Positions 1,262 through 59,760 of a stretch of 64,000 nucleotides of DNA are shown in pieces. The position numbers and the translations under genes are program-made. The DNA is from a bacterium (lineage in GTDB: Bacteria; Patescibacteriota; Minisyncoccia; Phycocordibacterales; VMGT01), in assembly GCA_030697645.1 (NCBI GenBank), contig JAUYPI010000015.1:15583-79582 (forward strand), in the 5' to 3' direction. Under the pieces are notes generated by a model that worked only from the letters and a program-made list of their open reading frames with translations, ran no database searches and was not told the DNA's origin. Positions within the stretch are counted from its first letter, which is position 1. The number at the start of each line of letters is the position of its first letter.

Positions 1262-1446
1262 TGGTGTTACGGTCGGGAGCCTAAGGCTCCTCGCCCAAAT
1301 AACTTTACGAACCTCGCGCTCACTGCGCATTCACCTGCGGCTCGTGCTCAATCACGAAATCCTCGTCGTACAACCAGTACGCCTACGGTTTCGTTCATTG
1401 CGCGCCAAGCCACATCTGAACGCACATTGAACACGAGTTCCGCAAA

Positions 1447-2052
1447 TTATTTTGGCGAGGAGCCTAAGGTCTTGAGCGCCGCCTTGATCCTCTCGCTCGT
1501 GTCTGCGGTGCTTGGCGGCATTTTTTTGAGTGCTTCCCGTGCCTCACGGGCGCTGTAGCCGAGGGTGGTGAGGGCGTCAATGACATCGCCGTAGTCCTCG
1601 CCCGCGCTATCCGCCTCGCGTGCGCTTGCGAGCGAGTCGCGGAGTTCGAGCACGATTTTTTGGGCCGTCTTTTTGCCGATGCCGGAGACCTTGGTGAGGT
1701 AGGAAGTGTCGCCGCGCGCAATCGCGCTCCGCAGGGTCTCGACCGGCGCGAGGTCGAGGATCGCAAGAGCGGATTTTGGCCCGATGCCGGAGACCGATAT
1801 GAGCCGCTCGAAGAGCGAGAGTTCGTCGCGCTCACGGAAGCCGAAGAGCTCGAGCGCGTCATCTCGCACCACAAGGTGCGTCCAGAGGGAGACCTCGCCG
1901 CGCGCGGCGCCGTGCCCTGCGCTCCCTGGTGCGGGACGGAGTGCCGCGCGCGCGTCGGCGCCCACGCGCACGCGGTAGCCGACGCCATGAACGTCGAGAA
2001 TAATGGCGTGATCCTCAACGAGGACAATCGAGCCGGTGAGTCGACCAATCAT
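1447..2052 (-). CDS. ruvA: Holliday junction DNA helicase subunit RuvA
   Basis: The 201-aa product has an N-terminal OB-like domain (MIGRLTGSIV...GVGYRV), two HhH motifs (SGIGPKSA, VSGIGKKTAQKI) and a C-terminal domain, which is the canonical RuvA layout. Confidence 0.9.
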   Translation of the reverse strand: MIGRLTGSIVLVEDHAIILDVHGVGYRVRVGADARAALRPAPGSAGHGAARGEVSLWTHLVVRDDALELFGFRERDELSLFERLISVSGIGPKSALAILDLAPVETLRSAIARGDTSYLTKVSGIGKKTAQKIVLELRDSLASAREADSAGEDYGDVIDALTTLGYSAREAREALKKMPPSTADTSERIKAALKTLGSSPK

Positions 2053-2090: not shown

Positions 2091-2177
2091 GTGTAGAAAG
2101 TAGAAAGTGGAGAGTAGAAAGTAGGACGACGTTCGTCGTCTACAATCTACCCTCTACCTTCCACTCTCTACTCTCTA
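2091..2177. repeat. Hairpin-array element, arm unit GTAGAAAGT / ACTCTCTAC, core GGACGACGTTCGTCGTC
   Basis: Direct copies of (a)gtagaaagt, a palindromic GC core, then inverted copies (ctctac/ctctactct). The element ends 7 nt before the rpsT ATG. Confidence 0.7.
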
Positions 2178-2568: not shown

Positions 2569-2575
2569 TTTGTCG

Positions 2576-2650: not shown

Positions 2651-2687
2651 GCGCGCTCGCTTCTTCTCGAGCAGATTTTGCTCCGTA

Positions 2688-2759: not shown

Positions 2760-2813
2760 TAATGTGTGCGAGGAGTATAGCAGGGTGGCGGTCAGTATGC
2801 CATCCGTGGGCGC

Positions 2814-3266: not shown

Positions 3267-3375
3267 ACTCTATAAAGTCTAGCGCGTTTGGTATTTTGGA
3301 ACAAAGGAAAACCCCGCCGCAAGGTCGCGCGGCGGGGTTTGAGGAACATGAGGCTCTGGCAGGGCAGCATCTTCC

Positions 3376-4479: not shown

Positions 4480-4588
4480 GAAATTTACAATAACCCACGA
4501 TCATAAATTAGTGTCAAATGTTACGCGATTTCGTGCTTCGGGTTTCGACACATGTGCTTACTGCTTGTTGCATAGTGCTTGCTGCTCG

Positions 4589-5320: not shown

Positions 5321-5410
5321 GGCAGCTCGAGCGGGGAGCGAGCAGAGGACAGACGGCGCACCCGCGGTACCTTATTATACTCCGCGGGGAGGGCATAAAC
5401 CCGAAACACC

Positions 5411-6616: not shown

Positions 6617-6733
6617 CTCAAAAATTTTCAATTATCAATTTTATAATTTTTAATCAATTTTCAATTACTCAATTTTCAAACACGACGTCGTCCGTTATTG
6701 AAAATTGAAAATTGTAAATTGAAAATTATCACC
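6617..6733. repeat. Hairpin-array element (arm AATTTTCAAT / ATTGAAAATT, core CAAACACGACGTCGTCCGTT)
   Basis: Fills the whole pilM-pilN intergenic region and ends 3 nt before the ATG at 6734. The core contains the palindrome ACGACGTCGT. Confidence 0.8.
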
Positions 6734-7354
6734 ATGGACACTCGCTTCAAAACCACATTTATGTCGAAGCAGCCGATCATGGCGGCGTCGCAAAAGAGAC
6801 ATCGAACGCTCGGCCCGAGCGCCGATCTCCTCGGCATTGTCGTTTCCGGCATATTCGTCCTCGCGTTTCTCTTTGCTGCTGGCACGTTTCTCTACGAGCG
6901 TTTGTCGATCCGCCGCGTCGTCGTGCTGGAAAAAACACTCGCGGAGGCACGCGAGGCATTCGAACCTGCGGTGATCGAGGAGCTCAAGCGCGACGACGCG
7001 CGAATGAAGGCGGCCGAGGTGCTCGTTGCAGGTCACCGGGCAGCGACGCCGCTTTTTCGAGTTCTTGAGGACGAGACTCTTCGAAGTGTGCAGTACAGCT
7101 CGTTTGCCTATACGGTAGAGGGCGGGCCTGGGGGGAAACTCAAGCTCGATGGTAGAGCGCGAGGATTCCGTTCTGTTGCGCTCCAGGCAGATACCTTCGG
7201 TAGTCAGCCAGACCTGATCAATCCGGTATTTTCGAACCTCGATCAGGATGTGAAAACAGGGTTCGCGACGTTTGATTTCGAAGCACAAATCGGGAAGAGG
7301 CTTATGGATTATGGAGCGATGATTGAGAGTGAGGAGGGCGCTGGAAGGCAGTGA
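6734..7354 (+). CDS. pilN: PilN-like pilus assembly protein
   Basis: Short cytoplasmic N-terminus, a single TM (LLGIVVSGIFVLAFLFAAGTFL), then a coiled-coil periplasmic region. Positioned after pilM. Start taken at ATG 6734; the ORF track starts at 6698. Confidence 0.5.
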   Translation: MDTRFKTTFMSKQPIMAASQKRHRTLGPSADLLGIVVSGIFVLAFLFAAGTFLYERLSIRRVVVLEKTLAEAREAFEPAVIEELKRDDARMKAAEVLVAGHRAATPLFRVLEDETLRSVQYSSFAYTVEGGPGGKLKLDGRARGFRSVALQADTFGSQPDLINPVFSNLDQDVKTGFATFDFEAQIGKRLMDYGAMIESEEGAGRQ

Positions 7355-7399
7355 CCGTTTCTTATGAAAGTGCATGTTTTGTAGAATGGCTCGAACTGC

Positions 7400-7514
7400 C
7401 TCAATTATCAATGTTCAATTTTAAATTTTCAATCAATTTTCAATTACCAAATTTTCAAACACGACGTCGTCCGTTATTGAAAATTGAAAATTGTAAATTG
7501 AAAATTAATAATCC
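7400..7514. repeat. Hairpin-array element (same arm and core as 6617..6733)
   Basis: caattatcaatgttcaattttaaattttcaatcaattttcaattacc - caaacacgacgtcgtccgtt - attgaaaattgaaaattgtaaattgaaaatt. Ends 7 nt before the pilO ATG. Confidence 0.8.
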
Positions 7515-8135
7515 ATGAAGCCATTTATTTCCATTCTTATATTCGCCCTCAGTGTTGCCGTGGTGGTGTTCTATATCAAGCCAGCGTTGCCACGGATTAA
7601 GGCGCTCCGGCAGGATATCTTTTTTTTGGAGGATACGCTTGAGAGCGCGCGCGAGCTTCAGAGTGTGCGCGACAAGCTCCTCGCGAAGTATAACAGCTTC
7701 CCGCCGGATGATATTGAGCGGCTGCATAAGCTCCTGCCGGACAATGTTGATAATGTCCGCTTGATTATTGACATAGATGAGATGGCGAGCCGCTACGGCC
7801 TCACGATTCAGGATATAAACATTAAGCAGCAACAAGAATCGCGCGTGCGCACCGCCGGAGCGGCGGACGAGGAAGCGGAGGACTTTGGAACGAGTGCGCG
7901 CACGGCACGTGAAATGTCGGAGGCGGCGGAAGGACTCGTTGAGCCGAAGCTCTCATTCCTCACGCTTTCATTTAGTGTGGTTGCGTCCTACGAGCGGTTT
8001 CTCGCCTTCCTCCGTGACATGGAGCGGAGTCTGCGGATTGTTGACGTCACCGAGCTTTCGTTCGAGTCGGGCAAAGACGCCGCGACCAAGGGGCACCTGT
8101 TTAAGGTGGCGGTGAAGACGTACTGGCTGCAATAG
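7515..8135 (+). CDS. pilO: PilO-like pilus assembly protein
   Basis: N-terminal TM (FISILIFALSVAVVVFYI), coiled coil, and a C-terminal domain. Gene order is pilM-N-O. Confidence 0.5.
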   Translation: MKPFISILIFALSVAVVVFYIKPALPRIKALRQDIFFLEDTLESARELQSVRDKLLAKYNSFPPDDIERLHKLLPDNVDNVRLIIDIDEMASRYGLTIQDINIKQQQESRVRTAGAADEEAEDFGTSARTAREMSEAAEGLVEPKLSFLTLSFSVVASYERFLAFLRDMERSLRIVDVTELSFESGKDAATKGHLFKVAVKTYWLQ

Positions 8136-8136
8136 T

Positions 8137-8328
8137 ATGAAAATTTTCAATTTTCAATTTTGCAATTTTCAATCAATTTCCAAGTACTCAATTTTCAAAC
8201 ACGACGCCGTTCGTCATTAAGTCATTGCAGCATTGAAAATTTATTGAAAATTGTAAATTGAAAATTATGAACACCGGCGCTTGGTTTGACATTTGAGTTT
8301 GCTCCAATTTCGGATTTTAATTTGTTGT
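8137..8328. repeat. Hairpin-array element (AATTTTCAAT family)
   Basis: aattttcaattttcaattttgcaattttcaatcaatttccaag... core caaacacgacgccgttcgtcatt ... attgaaaatttattgaaaattgtaaattgaaaatt. Ends at the ATG of the next gene. Confidence 0.75.
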
Positions 8329-8697
8329 ATGGCTCTCGTAAAAAAATATTGGCTCGCACTTGTGGTAACCGCTGTCCTCGGCGCGGGTGCTCTGGCGTAC
8401 ACACTGTTCCGTTCTTCCGAGGTCACCGAGCTCGCATCGAGCGAGTCGAAGGATCCGGTTGTCGCCGCGCAGAGCGCCGAGACGCTCGAACTTTTGAGCA
8501 ACCTCAAAAGATTGAGCTTTGACGAGGCGCTCTTCCGCGATCCACGCTTCAGAAGCCTTATTGATTTTAGCGTTGAGCTCACGCCGGAGCCCAAGGGGAG
8601 GCGCAACCCCTTTTTGCCGTTTAGCGACGAGGGTGGCGGCGCGGCGGGCACCAGCACGTCCGCTCTGGTAGCAACGTCTACACGCTCTCTCCCATGA
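8329..8697 (+). CDS. Hypothetical pilus-associated protein (PilP-like position)
   Basis: About 122 aa with an N-terminal TM (YWLALVVTAVLGAGALAY). Sits between the pilO-like gene and pilB. Identity is inferred only from context. The ORF track starts at 8293. Confidence 0.35.
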   Translation: MALVKKYWLALVVTAVLGAGALAYTLFRSSEVTELASSESKDPVVAAQSAETLELLSNLKRLSFDEALFRDPRFRSLIDFSVELTPEPKGRRNPFLPFSDEGGGAAGTSTSALVATSTRSLP

Positions 8698-8739
8698 GCG
8701 GCGGGAACAGCGCTGTAGCATAAGAAGTGTAAAACGCAA

Positions 8740-8927
8740 AGCGAAAAGCGAAAAACAACAGCACAAAATTTCAAGCTCCAACCAACAAGCTCCAAACAAA
8801 TTCCAATGATTCAAATCTCAATCTCGAAACACGCCGGTTTGAGATTTGAGATTTGGAATTTGAGGTTTATTTGGAAGTTGTTTTTTGGAATTTGGAAATT
8901 CGTTTTCTTTGCGCTTTTCATTTCTGT
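8740..8927. repeat. Composite hairpin-array element (outer arms GCAAAGCGAAAA, inner arms ATTTCCAA / TTGGAAAT, core GAAACACGCCGGTTTGAG)
   Basis: Nested inverted repeats: acgcaaagcgaaaagcgaaaaacaacagcacaaaat...ttccaa... core ...ttggaatttgag...ggaaattcgttttctttgcgc. Ends at the pilB ATG (8928). Confidence 0.75.
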
Positions 8928-10658
8928 ATGAGTTACCTTTCAGTATTAGCAGACAAGGGCTTGCTTAACTCAGAGGACCTCGCGGCCCTTGAAGAGGAGA
9001 TGGTCATCGCGCCCGAGAAGATTGAAGACGGGCTTGTCGCGCGCGGCGTCAGTGCTGAGCAGGTGCTCCGCGCGAAAGGCGGGTACTTCGGACTTCCCGT
9101 GCGTTCGATTTCGAACGAGAAAATCCCCGATGAGATATTGAAGTATATTCCACAGGAATCAGCCCGGCACTACCGCGTTCTACCGCTCGCGCTTGCGGAC
9201 GGCGTCCTTGAGGTCGGCATTGTTGATCCGGAGAATTTCGAGGCACGTGACGCGATTAGTTTCCTCGCGTCAAAAAATCATGTCCCGTTTAAATTTTTTC
9301 TCATATCGCGTGATGATTTTGATCGCGCACTGCGTACGTACGAAGGGCTCACCGCCCAGGTTGGGGAGGCACTCGAGGAGTACGAGACCGAGCTTGGCGG
9401 CGAGGAAGAGGCGATCAGCAAAGCCGCGGAGGATGTCTCGGGGGCGCCGCTTCCTGGGGGCGAGGTGACGACCATCGAGGAAGCGCCGGTGACGAAAATT
9501 GTTGCAACGATCCTTCGCTATGCGATTGAGGGCGGGGCTTCCGACGTCCATATCGAGCCCACGCTCGAGCGCGTACGGGTGCGGTTTCGCGTTGATGGCA
9601 TTTTGCACACGAGCCTCATTTTGCCGATTAAGGTGCACCGCGCCGTGGTAGCGAGGATCAAGGTGCTCTCGAACATAAAACTTGACGAAAAACGCAGACC
9701 GCAGGATGGTCGATTCTCCGCGCGTATCTCGGGGCGCAAGGTCGATTTTCGAGTTTCCTCTTTTCCAGCCTCCGGCGGCGAAAAGGTGGTGCTGCGCATC
9801 CTTGATCAGGAACGAGGTGTGAAGACACTCGAGGGGATCGGCATGCGCGACTCGCATCTCTCTCTCGTGCGGCAGGCGCTGAAGATGCCCTATGGCATGA
9901 TCCTCATCTCCGGTCCGACCGGTTCGGGAAAGTCAACGACGCTCTATGCGATGCTCCAGGAGGTGGATCGCGAGAAGCTGAACGTGGTGAGCCTTGAGGA
10001 CCCGGTAGAGTACCATATCGATGGCGTCGCGCAGTCGCAGGTGATGCCCGAGATCGGATTTACGTTCGCCTCGGGACTCCGTTCTGTACTGCGACAGGAC
10101 CCGGATGTCATCATGGTCGGCGAGATTCGCGACCGCGAGACCGCACAGCTTGCGATCCAGGCCGCGCTCACCGGACATATCGTTTTTTCGACGCTTCACA
10201 CGAACACCGCGGCAGGTGCCATACCGCGACTTATTGATATGGGGGTGGACCCCTATCTTATCGCGCCAACCGTGGTGCTCGTCGTCGCGCAGCGTCTGGT
10301 GCGCACACTCTGCGCCGGGGCGGGCCGTGCGGTCGCCATCGACGGTAGCATTAAACTGATGCTTGAGAAGCAGTTTGCCGACATGCCGAATGCGCATCGC
10401 GATAGGCTGCCTTTGGGAAAAGAAGTATACGAGGCATCGCCGACCCCCGAGTGCGCTTCGGGCGTGCGGGGACGCACCGCCGTCTTCGAGATGTTTCGTA
10501 TGACGAAAGAGCTTGAACGGGTGATTCTCGAAACGCCGACCGAGTCGAGTGTCTATCAACATGTGCGCGAGGTGCAAGGGATGCTCACCATGAAAGAGGA
10601 TGCTATACTGAAGTCATCCGAGCGTATCGTGCCGTTTGAGGAGGTAAATACACTGTGA
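8928..10658 (+). CDS. pilB: Type IV pilus assembly ATPase PilB (GspE family)
   Basis: Walker A LISGPTGSGKSTTLYAML, GspE N-terminal domain, Asp box, His box (HIVFSTLHTN) and the tetracysteine-region equivalent. Start taken at ATG 8928, just after the repeat; the ORF track extends to 8853 inside the repeat. Confidence 0.9.
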   Translation: MSYLSVLADKGLLNSEDLAALEEEMVIAPEKIEDGLVARGVSAEQVLRAKGGYFGLPVRSISNEKIPDEILKYIPQESARHYRVLPLALADGVLEVGIVDPENFEARDAISFLASKNHVPFKFFLISRDDFDRALRTYEGLTAQVGEALEEYETELGGEEEAISKAAEDVSGAPLPGGEVTTIEEAPVTKIVATILRYAIEGGASDVHIEPTLERVRVRFRVDGILHTSLILPIKVHRAVVARIKVLSNIKLDEKRRPQDGRFSARISGRKVDFRVSSFPASGGEKVVLRILDQERGVKTLEGIGMRDSHLSLVRQALKMPYGMILISGPTGSGKSTTLYAMLQEVDREKLNVVSLEDPVEYHIDGVAQSQVMPEIGFTFASGLRSVLRQDPDVIMVGEIRDRETAQLAIQAALTGHIVFSTLHTNTAAGAIPRLIDMGVDPYLIAPTVVLVVAQRLVRTLCAGAGRAVAIDGSIKLMLEKQFADMPNAHRDRLPLGKEVYEASPTPECASGVRGRTAVFEMFRMTKELERVILETPTESSVYQHVREVQGMLTMKEDAILKSSERIVPFEEVNTL

Positions 10659-10731
10659 GCTTGGAGAGTAGAGGGTAGACACGGATAAAACGGCACTGAG
10701 TTGCCCGTCCCACTTTCCACTTTCTCGTCAC

Positions 10732-11121
10732 ATGAGCGAAAATGAAAAACAAAAAAAGCAACTCCTGCTTATTGATGACGATGAGTTTCTCATTGATATG
10801 TACTCCACGAAGTTTACGGGGGCAGGGTTCGCTGTTATGGCGATGCGGAGCGTAGATGAGGCCCTCGGGAAGCTGCGTGAAGGGTACACACCTGCCATTA
10901 TCCTTCTTGATCTTGTCATGCCCACGGTTGGCGGCATTGCATTTTTGAAAGCGAGGCGAGATGAGCGCCTTGCGCCTGATGCGGTCGTCATTGTGCTCTC
11001 AAATCAGAGTGATGAGGCGCGCATCGAGGAGGCGAAGAAGCTTGGGGCGAAGGGATATATTTTGAAAGCGAACACCGTACCGTCGGAGGTATTAGAGCAG
11101 GTGCAGGCGCTTGCGGGTTAA
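10732..11121 (+). CDS. Single-domain response regulator (CheY/PilH-like receiver)
   Basis: 129 aa with receiver-domain acidic pocket residues (LLIDDDE...LLDLVMP) and a conserved K near the C-terminus. Sits between pilB and pilT. Confidence 0.7.
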   Translation: MSENEKQKKQLLLIDDDEFLIDMYSTKFTGAGFAVMAMRSVDEALGKLREGYTPAIILLDLVMPTVGGIAFLKARRDERLAPDAVVIVLSNQSDEARIEEAKKLGAKGYILKANTVPSEVLEQVQALAG

Positions 11122-11232
11122 TTTTCAATGCTCAATTTTCAATCAATTTACAATGGTCCAATTTTCAAACACGACGTCGTTCATCTATTGAAACATTGAA
11201 AATTGAAAATTAGAAATTGAAAATTTTCGTCT
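11122..11232. repeat. Hairpin-array element (AATTTTCAAT family)
   Basis: ttaattttcaatgctcaattttcaatcaatttacaatggtcc - aattttcaaacacgacgtcgttcatct - attgaaacattgaaaattgaaaattagaaattgaaaatt. Ends 9 nt before the pilT ATG. Confidence 0.8.
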
Positions 11233-12294
11233 ATGGATTACCACAAAGAATTCGAAAGGCTGGTGGAGATTATCTCGAATGAGAACGCGTCCGATCTCCA
11301 CCTTGCAGAAGGGCGTAACCCGATCATCCGCGTGGGGAGCTTCCTCGCGCCACTTTTGAAGTGGCCGGCACTCACGCGCGAGAACATGGAAGGCTATATG
11401 GGAGTTTTGCTATCGAAGAAGAATGAGGCACGATTCCTTGAAACGCGCGAGGTTGACTTTTCGTTTGGTTTACGCGACGTGATGCGTTTCCGCGGGAACG
11501 GGTACATGCAGCGGGGGCTTCTCTCGTTCGCGCTTCGCGTGATCCCGCGCGAAATCCGTACACTTGCGGAGCTCGGCCTTCCGCCGATACTCGAAACATT
11601 TGCGGGACGGCGGCAGGGGTTTTTTCTGGTTGTGGGGCCGGTGGGGCAGGGCAAGAGCACGACGCTCGCTTCGATGGTAGAGATCATTAACCGCACCCGC
11701 GCCGAGCATATCATCACGATCGAGGATCCAATCGAGTATATCTATGAACCCAAGAAGGCTATTATTGATCAGCGGGAAGTGCGCATTGATACCGGCGACT
11801 TCAAAACCGCCCTCCAATCAACATTCCGCCAGGATGTCAATGTGATTCTCGTCGGGGAGATGCGCGATCCTGAGACCATGGCGACGGCAGTGACCGCGGC
11901 GGAGACGGGACACCTCGTTTTCTCGACGCTCCACACGAATAATGCTTCACAGACCGTGGATCGCATCATTGACTCATTCCCAGCGACCCAGCAGGAGCAA
12001 ATCCGCACACAGCTTGCAGGATCGCTCCTCGGCATATTCTCGCAGCGGCTCCTGCCGCGGATCGCGGGCGGGCTCTCTCCGGCCTATGAGCTTCTCGTGA
12101 ATACCCCCGCGACTGCGAATCTCATCCGTGAGGGGCGGACCCATGAACTGCCCTCGGCCCTCGAGACCGGTTCCGAGCATGGGATGGTGGCGCTCAACCG
12201 CTCGCTCGCCGAACTCGTTGGCGCGGGAGAGATCTCGGTGGAGGATGCCTATACGCATTCGTATAATCCGCAGGCGTTGGAGAAGATGCTCTAA
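11233..12294 (+). CDS. pilT: Twitching motility ATPase PilT
   Basis: Walker A VVGPVGQGKSTTLASMV, followed by IITIEDPIEY and the AIRNLIRE-like region (ATANLIREGRTHEL). 353 aa. Confidence 0.9.
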   Translation: MDYHKEFERLVEIISNENASDLHLAEGRNPIIRVGSFLAPLLKWPALTRENMEGYMGVLLSKKNEARFLETREVDFSFGLRDVMRFRGNGYMQRGLLSFALRVIPREIRTLAELGLPPILETFAGRRQGFFLVVGPVGQGKSTTLASMVEIINRTRAEHIITIEDPIEYIYEPKKAIIDQREVRIDTGDFKTALQSTFRQDVNVILVGEMRDPETMATAVTAAETGHLVFSTLHTNNASQTVDRIIDSFPATQQEQIRTQLAGSLLGIFSQRLLPRIAGGLSPAYELLVNTPATANLIREGRTHELPSALETGSEHGMVALNRSLAELVGAGEISVEDAYTHSYNPQALEKML

Positions 12295-12359
12295 AACGAA
12301 ATTGCTCGACCTGTCACCTGTCGAGGCGGCATGGTTCAAGGTTGCCTGGAGGAGTGCCG

Positions 12360-12531
12360 GCACGAGAAATTTTCAATTTCCAATTTTCAATTTCCAATCA
12401 ATTTTTAATTACTCAATTTTCAAACACGTCGTCGCCATTGAGTCATTGAAGCATTGAAAATTTATTGAAAATTGCTCATTGAAAATTGAAAATTAAAAAT
12501 GTCTGCCTTTGGTTTCCCCCTTTAGCATTTC
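12360..12531. repeat. Hairpin-array element (AATTTTCAAT family)
   Basis: gaaattttcaatttccaattttcaatttccaatcaatttttaattactcaattttcaaacacgtcgtcgccattgagtc ... attgaaaatttattgaaaattgctcattgaaaattgaaaatt. Confidence 0.75.
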
Positions 12532-13773
12532 TTGCGATTGTCTAGGATTTTTGATACTGGTATGCTTTTTCGATACACTGCCTATGACGCGGCTGGTCAG
12601 GAGTGCTCGGGCGAAATTGAGGCCGTGAGTGCGGATATTGCGGTCGGCACACTCCAACACCGCGGGCTTGTGATCGCCTCCCTTGAGGAGGCGGCGGGTG
12701 GCGGGGGGCTTTTTGCGGCGAAGCTCACATTTTTCGACCGCGTTACCACCAAGGACCTCGTGATTCTCTCGCGGCAGATCGCGACTCTCTTCGAGGCGCG
12801 GATATCTGCGCTCCGTATATTTCAGATGCTCGCATCGGACGCGGAGAAGCCGATCCTCCAGCGGATATTAGGGCAGATTGTTTCTGACATCCAGGGTGGC
12901 AGCTCCCTGTCCATGGCACTGGGGAAACACCCACGGGTGTTTTCGGCGTTTTATATCAATATGGTCGCCGCTGGCGAGGAATCAGGGAAGATTAACGATG
13001 TCTTCATGTACCTCGCGGATTATTTTGACCGCTACTACCAGGTCACGGCAAAGATTCGCGGCGCGATGGTGTACCCTGCGTTCATTCTCACCGCCTTCGT
13101 GGGCGTGATGGTGCTCCTTCTGACGCAGGTCATCCCGCAGCTTGCGGACGTGCTGCGCGAGGCAGGGCAGGGAGTGCCTATCTACACACGGGTCGTTATC
13201 GGCATGAGCACCCTACTCGTTGACTACGGCGTGTTCGTGGCGGCTGGCGTGATTGGGCTTGGGTTTGCGCTCTGGCGGTATCGTGCCGCAGAGGGCGGCC
13301 GTGTGGCGTTTGACCGTCTTGAGATATCGGTCCCTATTTTTGGGCGTCTTTTCAAACTCCTCTATCTCTCGCGCATCGCTGACAATCTCCATACCATGCT
13401 TGCCGCGGGCGTCCCCATGGTGCGCGTGCTCGAGGTCTCATCATCGGTCGTCGACAACGTGGTCTACGAGACGATTCTCAAGGACGTCGTCGAGGCGGTG
13501 CGCGGCGGCGCGTCGGTCTCGGAGTCCTTCGGCCGCTACGAGGAGATACCCGGCATCATGGTGCAGATGATCAAGGTCGGCGAGGAGGCGGGAGAGGTAG
13601 GCACCATCCTGAAGACACTTGCGGTATTTTATCAGCGCGAAGTGAATAGCGCCGTCGACAGCTTGATTTCGCTTATTGAGCCGGCACTGGTCATGATCCT
13701 CGGCGGCGGCGTCGGCATCGTTGTTGCATCGGTGCTGATACCCATTTACAATATCGCGACGAGTATACAGTAG
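12532..13773 (+). CDS. pilC: Type IV pilus inner-membrane platform protein PilC (GspF family)
   Basis: Two GspF repeats with three TM segments. 12532 is a TTG; the first in-frame ATG is 12562 (MLFRYTAYDAAG) and is probably the true start. Confidence 0.85.
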   Translation: MRLSRIFDTGMLFRYTAYDAAGQECSGEIEAVSADIAVGTLQHRGLVIASLEEAAGGGGLFAAKLTFFDRVTTKDLVILSRQIATLFEARISALRIFQMLASDAEKPILQRILGQIVSDIQGGSSLSMALGKHPRVFSAFYINMVAAGEESGKINDVFMYLADYFDRYYQVTAKIRGAMVYPAFILTAFVGVMVLLLTQVIPQLADVLREAGQGVPIYTRVVIGMSTLLVDYGVFVAAGVIGLGFALWRYRAAEGGRVAFDRLEISVPIFGRLFKLLYLSRIADNLHTMLAAGVPMVRVLEVSSSVVDNVVYETILKDVVEAVRGGASVSESFGRYEEIPGIMVQMIKVGEEAGEVGTILKTLAVFYQREVNSAVDSLISLIEPALVMILGGGVGIVVASVLIPIYNIATSIQ

Positions 13774-13900
13774 AAGTCAATTTCCAATTTCCAAATTTTC
13801 AAATCTCAAACACGGAAAACGTTCGGGTTTGGAAATTGGAGCTTTGAGATTTGGAGATTGTTTGGAAATTGTAAATTTGGAACTTGGAAATTCGAGTCTT
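13774..13900. repeat. Hairpin-array element (arm ATTTCCAA / TTGGAAAT, core CAAACACGGAAAACGTTCGGGTTTGG)
   Basis: caatttccaatttccaaattttcaaatctcaaacacg...cgggtttggaaattggagctttgagatttggagattgtttggaaattgtaaatttggaacttggaaatt. Ends 6 nt before the secF ATG at 13901. Confidence 0.75.
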
Positions 13901-14812: not shown

Positions 14813-14860
14813 CTCACCTATACCGTCGCGGCTTGCTCGGCGGTTCGTGATTAAATTTTT

Positions 14861-14902
14861 GCATTTGCAATAACTCTGCGATCGCAGAGTTATTGCAAAT
14901 GC
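14861..14902. promoter_or_regulatory. 42-bp perfect palindrome GCATTTGCAATAACTCTGCG-AT-CGCAGAGTTATTGCAAATGC (GCGATCGC centre)
   Basis: Perfect dyad between the secF stop and gmhA. A near-identical copy lies at 40032..40073. It could be an operator or a terminator stem. Confidence 0.5.
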
Positions 14903-15025
14903 CACAAGTGACCACGCGTTGCTTTTCGCGTTTGCTTTTAGAGAGCGCAGCTGCTACTCTGCCTCATAGGTTGACCTTTTTTAAGATATATACGAGCCGA
15001 AACAACGAGACGAGGAGGAGAGCCC

Positions 15026-20803: not shown

Positions 20804-20851
20804 GATAAGGCATGCAAGTCATACGGGCCGCACCTCATTGCATTCGGTGCG

Positions 20852-20990
20852 GAATTTTCAATTTTCAATTTTACAATTTTCAAATAATTTCCAATGATTA
20901 AATTTCCAATTTCCAAACACGACGTCGTCGGCGTTTGAAAATTGACCCATTGAAAATTTATTGAAAATTGAAAATTGATAATTGAAAATT
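20852..20990. repeat. Hairpin-array element (AATTTTCAAT family) inserted in the 16S V1 helix
   Basis: Same arm unit and core (caaacacgacgtcgtcggcgtt) as the pil intergenic copies. Flanked by hairpins ccgcacctcattgcattcggtgcgg and gccgcaccgagtgtggcgaggtgcggc. Confidence 0.8.
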
Positions 20991-21190
20991 CCGCCGCACC
21001 GAGTGTGGCGAGGTGCGGCTAGTGGCGAACGAGGCAGTAATACGCAGGAACGTACCCTGGAGACGGGCATAACCAGCCGAAAGGTTGGCTAATTCCCGAT
21101 GGTCCGAGCACATATTTTTGGAGAAAAACAAAAGGCGCATCCTGTACCTGTATAGATACTTTGGATGCGCCCTGCAACATTGAGCGGTTT

Positions 21191-21310: not shown

Positions 21311-22157
21311 GACGACCTCCTTTTTCGCTGAAGAAAGAAAAGCATAGGGGTCTATATATTGTCAAGTATCTTACTTGGCTTCCAAAAATATGTGCTCGGT
21401 AAAGGAGCAATCTGCTCCGGGAGCGGCCTGCGGGCTATCAGCTAGTTGGTGGGGTAACGGCCTACCAAGGCTCTGACGGCTAGGGGGGGTGAGAGCCCGA
21501 TCCCCGCCGATGACACTGCGACACGGGTCATACACCTACGGGTGGCAGCAGCCGAGAATATTCGACAATGGGCGAAAGCCTGATCGAGCGACGCCGCGTG
21601 GTGGATGAAGCACTTCGGTGCGTAAACACCTTTTATGAGGGAAGAAGTTCGCCGCACCTCATTGCATTCGGTGCGGACATTTCGATATATCGAAATTTCG
21701 AAATATCGAAATGTCCGCCGCACCGAGTGCAGCGAGGTGCGGCGGATTGACGGTACCTCATGAATAAGGGGCTCCTAATCACGTGCCAGCAGGAGCGGTA
21801 ATACGTGAGCCCCAAGCGTTATCCGGAATCACTGGGCGTAAAGGGTGTGTAGGCGGCCGCGTTAGTCCTCCGTTAAATCCCACGGCTCAACCGTGGAGCT
21901 GCGGAGGATACGGCGCGGCTTGAGGGCGCGAGAGGTGTGCGGAACTCACGGTGTAGGGGTGAAATCCGTTGATATCGTGGGGAACACCAAAAGCGAAGGC
22001 AGCACACTGGCGCGCCCCTGACGCTGAAACACGAAAGCGTGGGTAGCGAAGCAGATTAGATACCTGCGTAGTCCACGCCCTAAACTCTGTCCGCTAGCTT
22101 TTCGGAGTATCGACCCTCTGGGAGGCGAAGCTAACGCGTTAAGCGGACCGCCTGGGA

Positions 22158-22189: not shown

Positions 22190-22722
22190 AGACGGGGACC
22201 AGCACAAGCGGTGGATCATGTGGTTCAATTCGATGGTAAACGAAGAACCTCACCAGGGCTTGAAATCCAGATGAACTCGCCTCGAAAGGGGTGCGGCCTT
22301 CACAAGAGGCATCTGGACAGGTGCTGCATGGTTGTCGTCAGTTCGTGGCTTAAGTTGTTCCCTTTAGTGGGGTAACGAACGCAACCCCCGTCGCCTGTTA
22401 TACGTGTCAGGCGAGACTGCCCAGCCCAAAGTGCGGCTCACTTCGGTTCGCCGCAGAATCAAGAAGTATGAAGTATGAAGTATGGAAATGTACGAAGAAA
22501 AACCATAATTCATGATTCATAATTCTTGCTTCTGCATCGAGCGGAGCGAGATGCATTTCGGGCTGGGAGGAAGGCGGGGATGACGCCAAATCAGCATGGC
22601 CCTCTGACGCCCTGGGCTACACACGTGATACAATGGCCGGTACAACGGGTCGCGACGGGGTAACCCTGAGCCAATCCTTATAAAGCCGGCCTCAGTTCGG
22701 ATTGAGGTCTGCAACTCGACCT

Positions 22723-22757: not shown

Positions 22758-23610
22758 TATACTGCGGTGAATACGTTCTCTGGTCTTGTACTCACCGCCC
22801 GTCATGCTAAGGGAGCCGGGAATACCCGAAACCCCGCCCTTTGCTCGCGGAGCAAAGGGCGGGATATATCGAAATTTTGAAATATCGATATGTCCCGCCC
22901 TTTGTTCACTTCGTGAACAAAGGGCGGGGTTACGGTAAGCTCGGTGACAGGAGCAAAGTCGTTGAGACATACTGTCTTGTTGCGACCTATGTGAGCGATC
23001 ACATAGTAAAACCCAACTGATATCGGTGAACCCCAGCGTACACAATTCACAATTTCTAATTTCAATTTTGAATTAGTCATTGAGAATTCGTAGTTGCGCC
23101 AGCTGGGCAATACCGAGGGAAGCCCACTAGGAGCTAGTTTTTTAACTGGTAACTAGTTGCGGCCCCGTAGAGACTTCCTGCACTTTTCTAGAAGTAGAAG
23201 GCGCAGGGGATGGCGTTGAAAAATTCACGCTATAAAACGTTGGCCCCAGCCGTAAAGTTTCCTAAAGAAACATTACGGCTGGGTGAAGATATAGTCCGTG
23301 CCTCAATGTAAATTGAGGGTAACACATGAACAAGGCACCGGTAGCGGAAGCTGTTGGTGGAATCATTCCTAGATCCCGTCCCAAGGCGCGTAAAGCGCGC
23401 CATGTTTAAATATTTAAATGTTTAAACATGGCCAAAATTCGCTTTGCGAATTTTGGCGAGGACTGATCAGGTCGGTCCGAGGGTGGAAGTTTTTCTTCCA
23501 TTCCTCGGAATCATGCTGTGGCTGTCAGCTAAACCAGCTAGCGGAGTTAGATGCAAATTTAGCTTCCAACCGTGGACGGAACAAAAGAGGGAACAAAAAA
23601 CACTCAAAAA

Positions 23611-30974: not shown

Positions 30975-31191
30975 GCCAAGCGGAAAACGCAAAACGAAAA
31001 ACAACAGTGCAAAGCGCAAAAAATTTCCAATTTCCAAAAAACAATTTCCAAACGAATCTCAAATCTCAAGTTCCAAATCACAAACGTTCGTGTTTGGAAC
31101 TTGAACTTTGAATCATTGGAATTTGTTTGGAGCTTGTTTTTTGGAGCTTGAAATTTTATTCTGTTGTTTTGCGCTTTTCGTTTTGCGCTGC
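30975..31191. repeat. Composite hairpin-array element (outer GCAAAACGAAAA / inner ATTTCCAA, core CAAACGTTCGTGTTTGG)
   Basis: Same nested architecture as 8740..8927 and 54286..54520. Ends at the ATG (31194) of the next gene. Confidence 0.75.
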
Positions 31192-33594: not shown

Positions 33595-33760
33595 ATTCGC
33601 CCCGAAAGCCCAAAACACAAATTACAAAACCCAAACAAAACACAAACGCACAAAATCAAAACTCGCGACGCGGAGGTTTATGCTTTTGTGTTTTGAATAC
33701 TGTGCTTTGTTTGGGTTTTGTGTCTTTGTGCTTTGTGCGTTTTATAGCTTAGGTCTTGTG
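33595..33760. repeat. Hairpin-array element (arm ACAAAA(C) / (G)TTTTGT variant)
   Basis: Direct arm copies caaaacacaaattacaaaacccaaacaaaacacaaacgcacaaaatcaaaa, core ctcgcgacgcggag, then inverted ttttgtgttttgaatactgtgctttgtttgggttttgtgtctttgtgctttgtg. Confidence 0.7.
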
Positions 33761-40961: not shown

Positions 40962-41816
40962 ATGAAAAACCAAGAAAAGTCATCCCCTCTCGAATCCCTA
41001 ACCATTAACTTCCGACCCGGACACCTCCACCCACTCACGCAGGTGATGGAGCGGATCGCGGCTGTCTTTACTGCACTTGGGTTCGCGATTGCAGACGGGC
41101 CGGAGATCGAAACTGAGTATTACAATTTCGACGCGCTCAATATCCCCGCCGATCATCCGGCGCGTGATATGCAGGACACTTTTTGGCTCGCGGAGCCGAA
41201 AAGTGAATTTCCAATTTCCAAAAACCAATTTCCAAATACGACGAACGTCGAGCGCGCGGATGCCGGGGCAACGTCACAGAAACTTTTGCTCCGCACGCAC
41301 ATAAGCTCACTTCAGGTGCGTTATATGGAGGCACATGGACCGCCGTTTCGGATGATATCGAGTGGGCGGGTGTATCGGCACGAGGCGACAGATGCGACGC
41401 ATGAGGCCCAATACCACTACACGGAGGGGCTTGCCGTGGAGCAAAGCGCCTCGCTGGCGCAGTTGAAGTACGTGCTGGACGCATTTGCAAAAAGCATTTT
41501 CGGCGAGAGTATGAAGAGTCGTTTTCGCCCTGCGTACTTTCCGTTTGTCGAGCCGGGGGTTGAAGTGGACCTCTCGTGCGTCGCGTGTGGCGGCGTTGGT
41601 GGGGCGTGCAGCGTGTGCAAGGGCACCGGCTGGGTGGAGGTGCTTGGCGCTGGCATGGTGCACCCGCAGGTGCTCACGAACGGCGGCATTGACCCCGCGC
41701 TCTGGCGCGGTTATGCATTCGGCGTTGGCGTTGATCGCATCGCCATGCTTCTCTACGGGATTCCGGATATACGATTGTTTTATAACGGCGACCTGCGCGT
41801 GGTGAATCAGTTTTGA
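40962..41816 (+). CDS. pheS: Phenylalanine-tRNA ligase alpha subunit, short form
   Basis: Class II motifs (FRMISSGRVYRHEATDATHEAQYHYTEGL, FPFVEPGVEVD, GAGMVHPQVL). Carries an in-frame insertion at 41199..41250. Confidence 0.85.
   Translation: MKNQEKSSPLESLTINFRPGHLHPLTQVMERIAAVFTALGFAIADGPEIETEYYNFDALNIPADHPARDMQDTFWLAEPKSEFPISKNQFPNTTNVERADAGATSQKLLLRTHISSLQVRYMEAHGPPFRMISSGRVYRHEATDATHEAQYHYTEGLAVEQSASLAQLKYVLDAFAKSIFGESMKSRFRPAYFPFVEPGVEVDLSCVACGGVGGACSVCKGTGWVEVLGAGMVHPQVLTNGGIDPALWRGYAFGVGVDRIAMLLYGIPDIRLFYNGDLRVVNQF
41199..41250. repeat. Half hairpin-array (ATTTCCAA units plus core remnant) inserted in-frame in pheS
   Basis: gtgaatttccaatttccaaaaaccaatttccaaatacgacgaacgtcgag encodes SEFPISKNQFPNTTNVE. 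Confidence 0.7.
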
Positions 41817-50380: not shown

Positions 50381-50953
50381 ATGTTCATCGTCGGTATTAC
50401 CGGAACGCTCGGCGCGGGGAAGGGCACGGTGGTTGATTACCTCGTGCGGGAGAAGGGGTTCGTCCACGCATCTGTTTCTGAATTTCTTGCGGTGGAGACA
50501 AAGCGTCGCGGCATCGAGCCGGACAGGATTGCCCGACACAACCTCGCAAACGAATATCGAGCACAAGGGCCGACGGTGCTCATGGAGGCCGTGTATCAAT
50601 CGGTTCCTCAGGGAGTCGAGAGGGTCGTACTCGAGCCGCAACACACCGTCTCCGAGGTGCGGTTTATGCAGAGCCGAGGAGGCGTGGTGTTCGCAGTTGA
50701 TGCGGACCTCGAGACTCGCTATAACCGCATACGAGAGCGTGGGAGTCTTAAAGATAACGTATCATTTGATGAGTTTGCTGCGATTCAGAAGCTCGAAATG
50801 GCTTCGGATGATCCGAACAAGAACAATCTTGGCGCGGCTATCGAGGCAGCTGATTTTCATGTTACAAACGACGGGACGCTGGAGGAGCTCTATACGCAGA
50901 TCGAGCAGGTACTGGCAAAAATTCATTTCTCCAAACACGACGTGCGTGTTTGA
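50381..50953 (+). CDS. P-loop nucleotide or nucleoside kinase (dephospho-CoA kinase / dNK-like)
   Basis: Walker A GITGTLGAGKGTV and a size (190 aa) typical of small NMP/dNMP kinases. Exact specificity is not determinable from sequence. Confidence 0.4.
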   Translation: MFIVGITGTLGAGKGTVVDYLVREKGFVHASVSEFLAVETKRRGIEPDRIARHNLANEYRAQGPTVLMEAVYQSVPQGVERVVLEPQHTVSEVRFMQSRGGVVFAVDADLETRYNRIRERGSLKDNVSFDEFAAIQKLEMASDDPNKNNLGAAIEAADFHVTNDGTLEELYTQIEQVLAKIHFSKHDVRV

Positions 50954-51010
50954 GGTTTGATGCATTGGAATTTGAAATTTGTTTGGAAATTGTTGGTTGG
51001 AAATTGGAGC
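50954..51010. repeat. Half hairpin-array (TTGGAAAT units) after the kinase gene
   Basis: gtttgaggtttgatgcattggaatttgaaatttgtttggaaattgttggttggaaattggag. The core gacgtgcgtgtttgagg overlaps the CDS end. Confidence 0.6.
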
Positions 51011-51795: not shown

Positions 51796-51917
51796 AAACG
51801 TCAACGTCCAAAAAAGCCTGCAAAGTCAAAAGTCAAAACGCAAAAGTCAAAGCCACAGCCTAAAAGTCAAAAGTTTTAAGGTTTTGAGTTGTGGTTTTGA
51901 CTTTTGATTTTTGAGCT
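51796..51917. repeat. Hairpin-array element (arm AAAGTCAAA / TTTGACTTT variant)
   Basis: ctgcaaagtcaaaagtcaaaacgcaaaagtcaaagcc ... gttttgagttgtggttttgacttttgatttttgagctttgacttt. Ends at the map ATG (51918). Confidence 0.7.
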
Positions 51918-52697
51918 TTGACTTTCATGTCTCTCATCAAAACTCCAGAGGAAATCGCCCTCATGCGCGCTGCTGGTAAGCGGCTTGCATTCGTGTTGCA
52001 CGAGGTCACTACTGCAGCGCTGCCGGGGGTTTCCGCGCGCGAGCTCGACTCCTCTGCGGAGCGTCTGATCCGCGCAGGCGGCGATCGGCCTGCATTTCTC
52101 GACTATACACCCGGCGGTGCGCGACGGCCGTACCCGGCGACGCTTTGTGTTTCCGTGAACGACGAAGTCGTGCACGGCATTCCGAACGAGCGCGAGAAAA
52201 TACTCCGCGAGGGCGACATCGTCGGTTTCGATCTCGGGCTTGAACACGGGGGATTTTTCGCCGACATGGCGGTGACGATCGGCGTCGGCGGGATTGACGA
52301 GCCGGGCCGACGGCTCATCGAGGCGACGCGTGGCGCGCTTGATGCGGGGATCGCCGTAGCGCGCGCAGGCAGCCACATTGGCGACATAGGTTTCGCTGTC
52401 GCGCGGTTCGTGCGTAAAGGTGGTTTTGGCCTCGTGACGGAGCTCGGTGGACACTCGATCGGCCGCTCTCTCCACGAACTCCCGTTCGTGCCAAACAGTG
52501 CGACGCGCGGCTCAGGCGCTCTACTTGCGAGCGGCATGACGATCTGTATTGAGCCGATGCTCTGTGAGGGAAGTGGCGCAGTACGGCTTGATTCGGACGG
52601 CTACACCTTCCGTACCCGAGACGGCCGCCGCAGCGCGCACTTTGAGCACACGATATTGATCACTGATGGAGGGGCGGAGATACTCACAGCGCCGTGA
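51918..52697 (+). CDS. map: Methionine aminopeptidase type I
   Basis: MSLIKTPEEIALMRAAGK start and metal-ligand blocks (VVHGIPN, DIVGFD, GHSIGRSLHE, FTIEP, HFEHT). Confidence 0.85.
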   Translation: MTFMSLIKTPEEIALMRAAGKRLAFVLHEVTTAALPGVSARELDSSAERLIRAGGDRPAFLDYTPGGARRPYPATLCVSVNDEVVHGIPNEREKILREGDIVGFDLGLEHGGFFADMAVTIGVGGIDEPGRRLIEATRGALDAGIAVARAGSHIGDIGFAVARFVRKGGFGLVTELGGHSIGRSLHELPFVPNSATRGSGALLASGMTICIEPMLCEGSGAVRLDSDGYTFRTRDGRRSAHFEHTILITDGGAEILTAP

Positions 52698-52715: not shown

Positions 52716-52857
52716 GATGCGATGCGCTTAATTTTCAATTTTCAATTCCAATGAATTTTCAATGTTTCAATGATGCAATGACGGACGACGTCGTGTTTGA
52801 AAATTGGGTAATTGAAAATTGATTGAAAATTGAGCATTGAAAATTTTTCCTTGAGTC
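52716..52857. repeat. Hairpin-array element (AATTTTCAAT family, core in reverse orientation)
   Basis: ttaattttcaattttcaattccaatgaattttcaatg...gcaatgacggacgacgtcgtgtttg...aaaattgggtaattgaaaattgattgaaaattgagcattgaaaatt. Confidence 0.75.
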
Positions 52858-54285: not shown

Positions 54286-54520
54286 AACTGAGTGCAAAAT
54301 GTAAAGTGCAAAGCGCAAAACAACAGTACAAAATTCCAAGCTCCAACCAACAATTTCCAAACAAATTTCAAATTCCAATGCATCAAATCTCAAACACGCA
54401 CGTCGTGTTTGGAAATTGGATTTTGAGTATTGTGATTTATTTGGAGCTTGTTTTTTGGAATTTGGAAATTCGTTTTGCTCATTGCGCTGTTGTTTTTCGC
54501 TTTGCGAGTGCGAGCGGAAC
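54286..54520. repeat. Composite hairpin-array element (outer CAAAGCGAAAAACAACAG, inner ATTTCCAA, core CAAACACGCACGTCGTGTTTGG)
   Basis: Same three-layer nesting as 8740..8927 and 30975..31191. Confidence 0.75.
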
Positions 54521-59393: not shown

Positions 59394-59435
59394 GACGAGA
59401 GCGTCGCGGTGGAGTTATCCACACCACTTAAATTT

Positions 59436-59760
59436 TCAAATTATCAATTTTCAATTTCCAATCAATTTTCCAATGACACAATTTTCAAACACGACGTCGT
59501 TCGTCATTGAAATATTAGACCTCTCCAGAAAGTCATTTCTACTGCAATTTTTGGTTTTCGGCTGCGACTTCGTCAGACGTCGCAAAATGATTCTCGCCGT
59601 ACATCCAGTACGCCGTCGAATCATTTTGCTCGTCTTCCTCGTCTCGCTCGAAAACCAAAAATTTCGTCGCGAAATGACTTTTTGGAGAGGTCTATTGAAA
59701 ATTCATTGAAAATTGATAATTGGAAATTGAAAATTATGAGTCCGTTTTGGTGATTATGAT
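59436..59760. repeat. Hairpin-array element (AATTTTCAAT family) carrying a 190-nt internal palindromic cargo
   Basis: Arms and core caaacacgacgtcgttcgtcattgaaat, then a nested palindrome gacctctccagaaagtcatttc...ttttggttttcg...cgaaaaccaaaaa...gaaatgacttttggagaggtc, then attgaaaattcattgaaaattgataattggaaattgaaaatt. Confidence 0.75.

Follow-up and report, generated by a model that had tools for sequence, protein, structure and literature searches.

Dispersed palindromic repeats with heptamer-array arms at pilus-gene junctions, in the 16S rRNA gene and in coding DNA of a Patescibacteria lineage

What are the long AT-rich blocks that separate the genes of a pilus cluster in a bacterium some of whose relatives keep these genes almost in contact? 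The question arises from a 64-kb window, by which we mean the whole stretch of DNA analysed (64,000 nucleotides, positions 15,583 to 79,582 of contig JAUYPI010000015.1, assembly GCA_030697645.1; all coordinates below count from its first nucleotide). The lineage belongs to the Patescibacteria (Parcubacteria-type); among species representatives, PilB has its best matches at 55-60% identity. The cluster that hosts the blocks lies at 5411-14812 on the plus strand and consists of pilM, a pilN-like gene, pilO, orf4 encoding a small protein, pilB, a response regulator gene, pilT, pilC and secF. Seven of its eight junctions from pilM to secF contain an AT-rich block of 104-183 nt with a G+C content of 20-36%, compared to 56% for the window and genome. 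The genomes of Patescibacteria, also known as the Candidate Phyla Radiation (CPR), are tiny and tightly packed, so one would not expect a repeat family that lengthens many junctions by 100-300 nt. A first-pass annotation of this DNA had described the blocks as a feature of the pil cluster that ends precisely at each next start codon, and had favored a role in setting the stoichiometry of the operon. We arrive at a different reading, to which we assign a probability of about 0.6: the blocks belong to a dispersed family of non-coding, insertional palindromic repeats, comparable to repetitive extragenic palindromes (REPs), miniature inverted-repeat transposable elements (MITEs) and Rickettsia palindromic elements (RPEs), with slippage-prone heptamer arms, that has multiplied in this lineage.

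The blocks share one layout. Tandem heptamers (AATTTTC, or TTTCCAA and related units) lead into a core of the form CAAACACG-loop-CGTGTTTG, which is followed by the same units inverted. At one mismatch or less, AATTTTCAAT occurs 84 times, compared to 4.0 +/- 1.9 times in shuffled sequence, and exact TTTCAAACACG is found at 6674, 7453, 8193, 11163 and 12418. Pfam supports PilM, PilO, PilB, the response regulator, PilT, PilC and SecF among the original gene calls, while the genes that had been named pilN and pilP-like have no Pfam match. The eight junctions are listed below, with z scores from folding against dinucleotide shuffles.

6623..6727, plus strand: pilM-pilN element, AATTTTC-type, beginning 6 nt past the stop codon and ending 6 nt short of the ATG; z -4.77
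7403..7506, plus strand: pilN-pilO element, AATTTTC-type, 48 nt past the stop codon and 8 nt short of the ATG; z -4.21
8139..8266, plus strand: pilO-orf4 element, AATTTTC-type; z -3.56
8738..8920, plus strand: orf4-pilB element, a long composite with AAAGCG-type outer arms, inner TTTCCAA/TTTGAGA heptamers and core GAAACACGCCGGTTTG
10659..10731, plus strand: pilB-regulator spacer, 53% GC, with degenerate heptamers only (GTAGAGG / CCACTTT) and no core; z -0.31
11120..11226, plus strand: regulator-pilT element, AATTTTC-type, its first unit overlapping the TAA stop codon and its end 6 nt short of the ATG; z -3.16
12365..12494, plus strand: pilT-pilC element, AATTTTC-type, with 70 nt of flank upstream; z -4.71
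13779..13892, plus strand: pilC-secF element, TTTCCAA-type, core CAAACACGGAAAACGTTCGGGTTTG; z -3.89

The right arms of the copies at 7403 and 6623 are identical. Six of the seven pil copies were folded with controls, and each folded better than all 200 dinucleotide shuffles (z -3.2 to -4.8), which bears out the hairpins first proposed; the copy at 8738-8920, folded without a shuffle control, gave -55.3 kcal/mol. The stems fall short of the 50-60 bp that had been claimed, with about 30-45 predicted pairs interrupted by bulges and energies of -20 to -38 kcal/mol, and two copies have unequal arms (31 nt on the right, about 57 nt on the left). The pattern does not extend to every junction, as the spacer between pilB and the regulator gene folds no better than its shuffles, nor is the whole intergenic space a single element, since four junctions retain 40-70 nt of flanking sequence outside the element. 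As intrinsic terminators the elements do not qualify: their stems are rich in AU, and what comes after the pil copies is ATCACC, AATAATCC or the like. A run of T5-T9 follows only a copy located after the map gene, and no terminator-like match in 5300-15100 coincides with an element.

The apparent precision relative to start codons is partial. The last unit stands 3-9 nt before the ATG at five of the seven junctions (gaps of 6, 8, 7, 6 and 8 nt). At pilO-orf4 and pilT-pilC the ATGs that adjoin the elements open reading frames of only 9 and 8 codons, and the true starts lie further downstream: at 8329 for orf4, 62 nt beyond the element and after a native leader that is common to the related contig L204, a start backed by orthologues, and at 12562 for pilC, 67 nt beyond the element. 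The two mini-ORFs, at 8267-8296 (MNTGAWFDI, then stop) and 12499-12525 (MSAFGFPL, then stop), start at, or 4 nt past, the end of the element and have a ...TTGGTTT... stretch in common; they may be translated, or may be part of an optional 3' module of the element.

Comparison with relatives shows how the blocks come and go. PilO relatives at 79%, 76% and 71% identity are located on contigs with the same gene order. In the related contig L206 there are 52 nt between pilM and pilN, pilN and pilO overlap by 4 nt, 4 nt separate pilO from orf4, the next spacer is 16 nt, and no such elements are present. L208 has a pilN-pilO spacer of 4 nt, likewise free of any element. In L202, by comparison, all pil junctions are filled, by element types other than those of the window. 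Protein termini are conserved across the comparisons with L206, L208 and L202. With ancestral spacers of 0-16 nt, any insert would abut both the stop codon and the ATG, which accounts for the apparent start-codon precision. Whole elements are also replaced between nearly identical strains. Over about 4 kb there are 3 differences between L202 and L204/L205, and their PilO proteins are identical, yet they carry unrelated elements between pilO and orf4; the tract that diverges between L202 and L204 runs from the stop codon to about 20 nt inside orf4, and the two orf4 products match except for the first few codons and one residue (I/V). Elsewhere, the junction between adk and the AAA_18 kinase-like gene measures 3 nt in the window and holds a 330-nt nested hairpin in the related contig L209.

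Two further comparisons contributed little on insertion. The contig L207, from a public metagenome-assembled genome of the same species (GCA_034376905.1, contig JAXMIX010000025.1), differs from window positions 2161-8057 by 2 substitutions, neither of them in an element, and is therefore uninformative on copy-number change. It starts inside the hairpin at 2093-2171 and breaks off at 8057, some 80 nt before the element at 8139, so the repeats appear to break metagenome assemblies. An apparent insertion polymorphism among L209, L210 and L211 was rejected, being partly an N-filled scaffolding artefact (L211) and for the rest a 297-nt indel that is not a heptamer hairpin.

These junctions bear directly on the leading idea of the first-pass annotation, namely that the blocks are selected intercistronic RNA hairpins in the pil operon which are cut by RNase III, or protect against exonucleases, and so set the amounts of the cistrons. 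Several observations agree with it. In addition to the folding results, core-type copies are more frequent at the pil junctions (7 of 8) than at the other co-directional junctions (4 of 25; Fisher p = 0.0005), and L202 too has its whole pil cluster filled. All pil copies score higher on the gene strand in a profile search, the secF copy marginally so (43.1 vs 42.3 bits), with the caveat that the profile was built from copies in gene-strand orientation. Some orthologous copies elsewhere are conserved above the level of synonymous sites, as described below. Hairpins inserted at the tips of rRNA helices are classic RNase III substrates, and short CPR rRNA insertions have been described as uncharacterised (PMC11270868). 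Yet the junctions of L206 and L208 are tight or overlapping with protein ends unchanged, and the type of element at one junction varies between species and even between near-identical strains. The two copies with unequal arms, and the one-armed copies and those in coding DNA, which cannot act in this way, also speak against it. RNAalifold on a MAFFT alignment returned 9 invariant pairs and no compensatory changes, a covariation result that is uninformative here because the repetitive arms cannot be aligned in register. The annotation had itself named element-free junctions in close relatives with unchanged pil expression as the observation that would count against it; the sequence half of this is what L206 and L208 display. 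We regard the explanation as unlikely. Since members of the family also lie within the 16S rRNA gene and coding DNA and, reversed, downstream of map, and since L202 bears different elements at the corresponding junctions, the elements are neither a control device made for the pilus operon nor a conserved part of pil regulation.

That the blocks are copies of one family is evident from the rest of the window. The pattern extends beyond 6617-13900, and similar copies are found throughout the 64 kb. A fuzzy search for the core detected 13 genuine core-bearing copies, with about 2 expected from shuffles, and an nhmmer profile made from the copies detected 12-13 sites: 6627, 7407, 8146, 8770, 11116, 12372, 13777, 20856, 31026, 50920, 52728, 54336 and a split site at 59437/59665. 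In an alignment of seven window copies with four from other contigs, mean column identity is 68% and the core and the ends AATTTTCAAT / AAATTGAAAATT are invariant; the statement that they are not a single-sequence MITE family thus has to be withdrawn. The family has AATTTTCAAT as its fixed left end and ATTGAAAATT as its fixed right end, and the core of the main subfamily is ACGACGTCGT. That the core is the conserved part was rightly recognized: in foreign copies it is a perfect, loop-free 26-bp palindrome containing GACGTC (TTTCAAACACGACGTCGTGTTTGAAA) and is the best-conserved part across subfamilies, whereas the window cores are degenerate and no longer perfect palindromes. Further long hairpins of the window, some of them copies of this family and others built of different units, are as follows.

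30979..31189, minus strand: long composite element in which AAAGCG outer arms are combined with TTTCCAA arms and a core; the minus strand scores better
54309..54492, no strand assigned: long composite element, core CAAACACGCACGTCGTGTTTG, whose paired halves CAAACACG/CGTGTTTG match the search pattern with 0 mismatch
59431..59735, plus strand: AATTTTC-type element, split just past its core by a 179-nt hairpin that is nested in it and belongs to a second family (59516-59694, core CGTACATCCAGTACG)
1280..1469, no strand assigned: long hairpin of the second family, downstream of ruvA, core CGTACAACCAGTACG
2093..2171, no strand assigned: GTAGAAA / TCTACCC heptamer hairpin between ruvA and rpsT, apex ACGACGTTCGTCGT
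33605..33742, no strand assigned: CAAAACA / TTTGTGC heptamer hairpin; a related unit type lies within the L209 adk-AAA_18 insertion

Two copies, at 1280-1469 and 59516-59694, make up the second family, whose core is CGTACANCCAGTACG. Nesting is seen repeatedly. The AATTTTC unit is found within an GCCGCACC palindrome in the 16S rRNA gene and within AAAGCG arms in L208, and conversely other hairpins interrupt AATTTTC or TTTCCAA units, at 59516-59694 and in L202, where GC-rich hairpins lie within TTTCCAA- and CGAAAT-type elements.

In a hairpin alignment scan that covered the whole window, 33 hairpins reached a score of 28 or more, compared to a maximum of 25 and a 99th percentile of 23 in shuffled sequence. 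The scan replaced a minus-strand BLAST self-search, discarded because most hairpins were lost, and used a shuffled null; a sliding-window minimum free energy scan was likewise discarded, since all of its windows folded into multibranched structures. Among co-directional junctions 13 of 33 hold a long hairpin, among convergent ones 8 of 10 and among divergent ones 2 of 9; the hairpins of the convergent class are for the most part short, richer in GC and terminator-like. Rfam returned only sub-threshold matches, to plant microRNA precursor hairpins. Another small repeat family consists of short hairpins. Perfect 19-bp hairpins (TTTGCAATAAC...GTTATTGCAAA) at 14861-14902 and 40032-40073, and also at about 4000-4040 of L209, follow genes and have a terminator-like look, with GCGATCGC at one tip. 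A perfect 21-bp stem (CAAACATCAAAACAGCGCGG...) at 2527-2572, between rpsT and a convergent tRNA-Arg gene and just downstream of CCCTAAA heptamers at 2444-2477, probably acts as a bidirectional terminator. Genes for a member of the Translin family, which is rare in bacteria, and for RmuC are located at 32970-33590 and 36878-37987, in a genome with many inverted repeats. RmuC is said to restrict inversions at short inverted repeats.

An alternative that needs no mobility is that nothing moves: heptamers would slip in place, template switching at quasi-palindromes would supply the inverted arms, and the shared core would be convergent or ancestral. Period 7 indeed dominates the tandem arrays of the window (31 of 84, plus 8 of period 14, compared to 2 in a shuffle; distant relatives have 8 period-7 arrays per 128 kb). 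It is seen even in the MnmA coding region, where a five-unit array (AAGAATC/ATGAATC) at 35740-35774 falls within a variable loop between HYAR and KDQTYFL. There are more than 20 distinct heptamer units, the number of units in the arms varies between orthologues, and neither a transposase nor a target duplication was found, as detailed further on. Against this stands the recurrence of the same 100-130-nt sequence, ends and core included, at 12-13 sites and in genomes with a 38%-identical Map protein, together with the swapping of whole elements between near-identical strains and the nesting of an identical unit in unrelated outer palindromes. We consider an origin purely in place very unlikely.

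The palindromic core itself invites another proposal, that a dimeric protein (a nucleoid protein, a recombinase, a restriction-like or an uptake-related factor) binds or cuts it at the DNA level and that the arms are secondary. The perfect cores of the foreign copies and their conservation are in line with this, and a function independent of orientation would suit copies on both strands. The degenerate, imperfect cores of the window are not, no candidate partner protein was found, and the copies cluster in transcribed spacers instead of being evenly spread, which makes this the most improbable of the explanations weighed here.

The 16S rRNA gene also contains a copy. By Rfam the gene spans 20758-23009, that is 2252 nt for a model of 1533 positions. 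It contains five insertions, of 174, 275, 90, 137 and 79 nt. Each of them maps to columns that form a hairpin loop in the Rfam small subunit rRNA model, and the long-hairpin scan flagged four of these five regions. All five are hairpins at helix tips; four are listed below.

20827..21019, plus strand: first insertion, in a helix loop at model position ~80, with outer palindrome GCCGCACC...GGTGCGG
21629..21769, plus strand: third insertion, 90 nt, at a helix tip, with the outer palindrome GCCGCACC... again and a different centre of CGAAAT-type units
22420..22567, plus strand: 137-nt insertion at a helix tip, with GAAGTAT / CATAATT heptamer arms
22826..22935, plus strand: hairpin with the 79-nt insertion, model position ~1436, at a helix tip; a CGAAAT-type palindrome

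Centred in the outer palindrome of the first insertion is a complete AATTTTC-type element with its core (20849-20994); no other copy in the window is as perfect (-53.9 kcal/mol, z -9.6). A survey of CPR rRNA genes reported many insertions of less than 200 bp that are neither introns nor ORF-bearing and called them uncharacterised, and suggested intervening sequences (IVS) of the RNase III type for the short ones (PMC11270868). If our reading holds, at least one short non-intron CPR rRNA insertion would be explained, one that carries the same unit as the intergenic hairpins. The gene also has a group I intron directly after AAGUCGU, at 22954-23318, followed by a 3' exon at 23319-23375. This exon reads ...AACAAGGCACCGGTAGCGGAAGCTGTTGGTGGAATCATTCCTAG, in which the usual anti-Shine-Dalgarno sequence CCUCC is seemingly replaced by AUUCCU, an alteration that may be connected with how few genes have a GGAGG motif upstream.

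Pieces of the elements are also present in protein-coding DNA.

41190..41280, plus strand: in-frame insertion of 28 residues in PheS (amino acids 77-106), made of an element left arm and half a core (AATTTCCAATTTCCAAAAACCAATTTCCAAATACGACGAACGTCG)
50920..51007, plus strand: one-armed copy at the AAA_18 gene, with its core at 50929-50955 and its right arm in the spacer

The PheS insertion is defined relative to solved PheS structures. The element core provides the 8 codons for the C-terminal FSKHDVRV of the AAA_18 kinase-like protein together with the stop codon, and the C-terminus of the L209 protein differs (…EDRSLL). GyrB of the window contains an intein (45108-48575; Pfam Intein_splicing, amino acids 485-908), compared to a GyrB of 720 amino acids without an intein in L209.

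Copies related to these are also carried by distant Patescibacteria of AT-rich composition. A metagenome search with the core pattern returned 120 loci, five of which are true copies with arms; the others, including a single viral match, are chance 18-mer matches. The five true copies come from contigs of 33-47% GC, one copy per 7-12 kb locus, and fill spacers between housekeeping genes (der-pth; map-yqgF). One host groups with Falkowbacteria-like genomes, and the Map protein of another is only 38% identical to that of the window. No copies were found in about 1.3 Mb of pilB loci from 80 other species, and no element match was found in phage and plasmid collections. As judged from these searches, the family is patchy over deep lineages and strongly amplified in the lineage of the window. 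Our search of the CPR literature, the coverage of which is incomplete so that an earlier description is possible, found no description of such elements.

The two hairpins that flank map can be compared with orthologues in L209. Between the window and L209, Map is 84%, the amino acid kinase 87% and Adk 88% identical, and third codon positions are 55-66% identical.

51822..51925, plus strand: AAAGTCA-heptamer hairpin upstream of map, orthologous in L209 and ~95% identical over ~104 nt
52726..52846, minus strand: AATTTTC-type element downstream of map, reversed; its L209 orthologue is ~88% identical in aligned columns and differs in heptamer counts

The difference in counts agrees with the earlier view that the arms are prone to slippage. 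The element at 52726-52846 also appears in a promoter-like setting: its last TTGAAA is the putative -35 box in an L209-conserved TTGAAA-N18-TATACT-N6-ATG that leads to the gene start at 52873.

This raises the possibility that the right arm is an outward promoter, with TTGAAA as the -35 and GAAAAT, 17 nt on, as the -10 box, which would fire 6-9 nt before the ATG and produce leaderless pil mRNAs. Such a promoter would account for the missing Shine-Dalgarno (SD) motifs and for the fixed distance to the ATG. SD motifs are lacking as had been reported, with no GGAGG-like motif within 20 nt of the start in nine of nine genes, but this is true of most genes in the window, element present or not. The 16S 3' tail seems to be without the CCUCC anti-SD, and -10-like TANNNT hexamers stand 5-9 nt before the ATG at eight genes without elements, with a perfect TATAAT-8 nt-ATG at 54613.

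Starts with a -10-like hexamer 5-9 nt upstream: 1447 and 3376 on the minus strand; 8329, 35348, 36878, 52873 and 54613

Taken together, the -10-like boxes near ATGs and the 16S tail suggest that leaderless mRNAs may be common in this organism. In 5300-15100 there are 13 sigma-70-like matches compared to 4.9 +/- 2.0 expected, mostly TTGAAA-17-GAAAAT in element arms, and the plus-strand -10 boxes in the arms end at 6726, 7505/7512, 11224 and 12493. The 7-nt period, however, makes such matches automatic, any array of at least four TTGAAAA units yielding one, so the promoter scan is suggestive only. A test of spacing was dropped as of low power, given that a 7-nt periodic array always sets some unit 3-9 nt from an ATG. 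GAAAAT is moreover a weak -10 box, like arms are found within the 16S gene, in reverse and antisense, and two pil genes start 62-67 nt past their element. As a general explanation of the blocks this is quite unlikely; co-option of individual copies for promoters or RNA processing may nevertheless have taken place.

How do these repeats relate to known systems? With REPs and the bacterial interspersed mosaic elements (BIMEs) they share the form of non-coding imperfect palindromes in many copies, placed after genes or in co-directional spacers and rarely in divergent ones (2 of 9 here), the lack of a target duplication, and junctions that vary between strains, here the swap between L202 and L204. 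REPs and BIMEs are co-transcribed as hairpins, as the present elements would be. REPs, however, are GC-rich, 20-40 bp in length, have a GT[AG]G head (GTAG) and are mobilised in proteobacteria by REP-associated tyrosine transposases (RAYTs, of the Y1 type). The present elements are AT-rich, 100-200 nt in length, with AATTTTC ends, heptamer-array arms and a central core, and are nested; no RAYT (IS200/IS605-like Y1 transposase) domain was found among the proteins of the 64-kb window. Like MITEs, the copies are short (104-200 nt), have no ORF, are numerous (12-13 in 64 kb) and have invariant ends (AATTTTCAAT / ATTGAAAATT), but no target-site duplication is seen, and no autonomous partner element with the same ends and a transposase is located within the window.

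Correia elements of Neisseria and other MITEs (RUP, Nezha) are likewise non-coding, 100-200 nt in length, gene-adjacent and bounded by inverted ends. Correia elements donate promoters and form RNase III-cleaved hairpins in mRNAs, traits that parallel the promoter-like arms and predicted hairpins described here. They differ in duplicating a TA target and in having a non-palindromic interior with an IHF site, whereas here the whole element is palindromic with tandem-heptamer arms. RPEs are palindromes in a reduced genome and are tolerated as in-frame insertions in protein genes and within RNA genes, with which the pieces in the PheS loop, at the AAA_18 C-terminus and in the 16S gene can be compared. 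The present copies, in contrast, are mostly intergenic, those in coding DNA are partial or one-armed, and there is no sequence relationship to RPEs. The 16S insertions resemble rRNA IVS and the short ORF-less CPR rRNA insertions in being hairpin extensions at the tips of rRNA helices, and differ in that one of them carries the same unit as the pil junctions. To our knowledge, no account of IVS places them in a repeat family that occupies intergenic spacers as well.

The 7-nt period recalls the short tandemly repeated repetitive (STRR) sequences of cyanobacteria and the TAACTGA-type heptamer repeats of Beggiatoaceae, cyanobacteria and Bacteroidetes, which are also intergenic, comprise several unit types per genome and have a patchy distribution (PMC4679880). 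They often stand a few nucleotides upstream of starts without ribosome-binding sites, comparable to the 6-8 nt gaps at five pil junctions. They are direct arrays (169 direct sets and 1 indirect set reported; PMC4679880), in contrast to the inverted pairs about a conserved palindromic core, forming long hairpins, that we describe. CRISPRs (clustered regularly interspaced short palindromic repeats) had been dismissed with good reason: the 7-mers are contiguous in inverted-pair arrays without unique spacers, they match no Rfam family, and Pfam scans of the window genes found no cas domains. Because each known system differs in at least one defining feature, we do not file the elements as a member of any.

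A number of observations weigh against the insertional reading and account for its modest probability. Pfam scans of the 64-kb window found no transposase, RAYT or other candidate mobilising gene. No target-site duplication was detected at the flanks of seven copies or in the filled/empty pairs (adk-AAA_18; pilN-pilO), the resolution of this test being limited by the divergence between the members of the pairs. The enrichment of core-type copies in the pil cluster, together with the fully filled pil junctions of L202, hints at local selection or local copying. The copies flanking map are far more conserved than synonymous sites, which would not be expected of selfish, neutral DNA unless gene conversion homogenises the copies. 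Finally, the more than 20 unit types and the excess of period-7 arrays point to a general 7-nt process beyond one mobile family.

The insertional family that we favor would work as follows. A conserved palindromic core is flanked by inverted arrays of 7-nt units, which would be gained and lost through slippage. Copies would arrive through insertion or replacement and land in very short spacers, at the centres of other palindromes (in the manner of Russian dolls), at the loop ends of 16S helices and, now and then, in regions of proteins that tolerate them. They would be co-transcribed and fold as RNA hairpins, and this folding may be what makes them tolerable. Their long double-stranded stems would probably be cut by RNase III, as rRNA intervening sequences are, and some copies would have been co-opted, for example as a -35 box. 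A bolder version, tentative and rather doubtful at present, is that of hairpin-seeking mobile DNA throughout the Patescibacteria: the core would be the handle for an enzyme, insertion would take place at palindrome centres and helix tips, the family would be the source of the numerous short CPR rRNA insertions, and, once tightly coupled operons had been split, its arms would be co-opted as promoters or processing sites for single, often leaderless messages.

If true, the insertional reading would provide a case outside Rickettsia of palindromic elements that are tolerated inside proteins, and it would connect the 7-nt tandem repeats known from other phyla with a form that makes hairpins and appears to be mobile. 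In practical terms, such repeats appear to break metagenome assemblies, confuse the calling of start codons and serve as strain-level markers.

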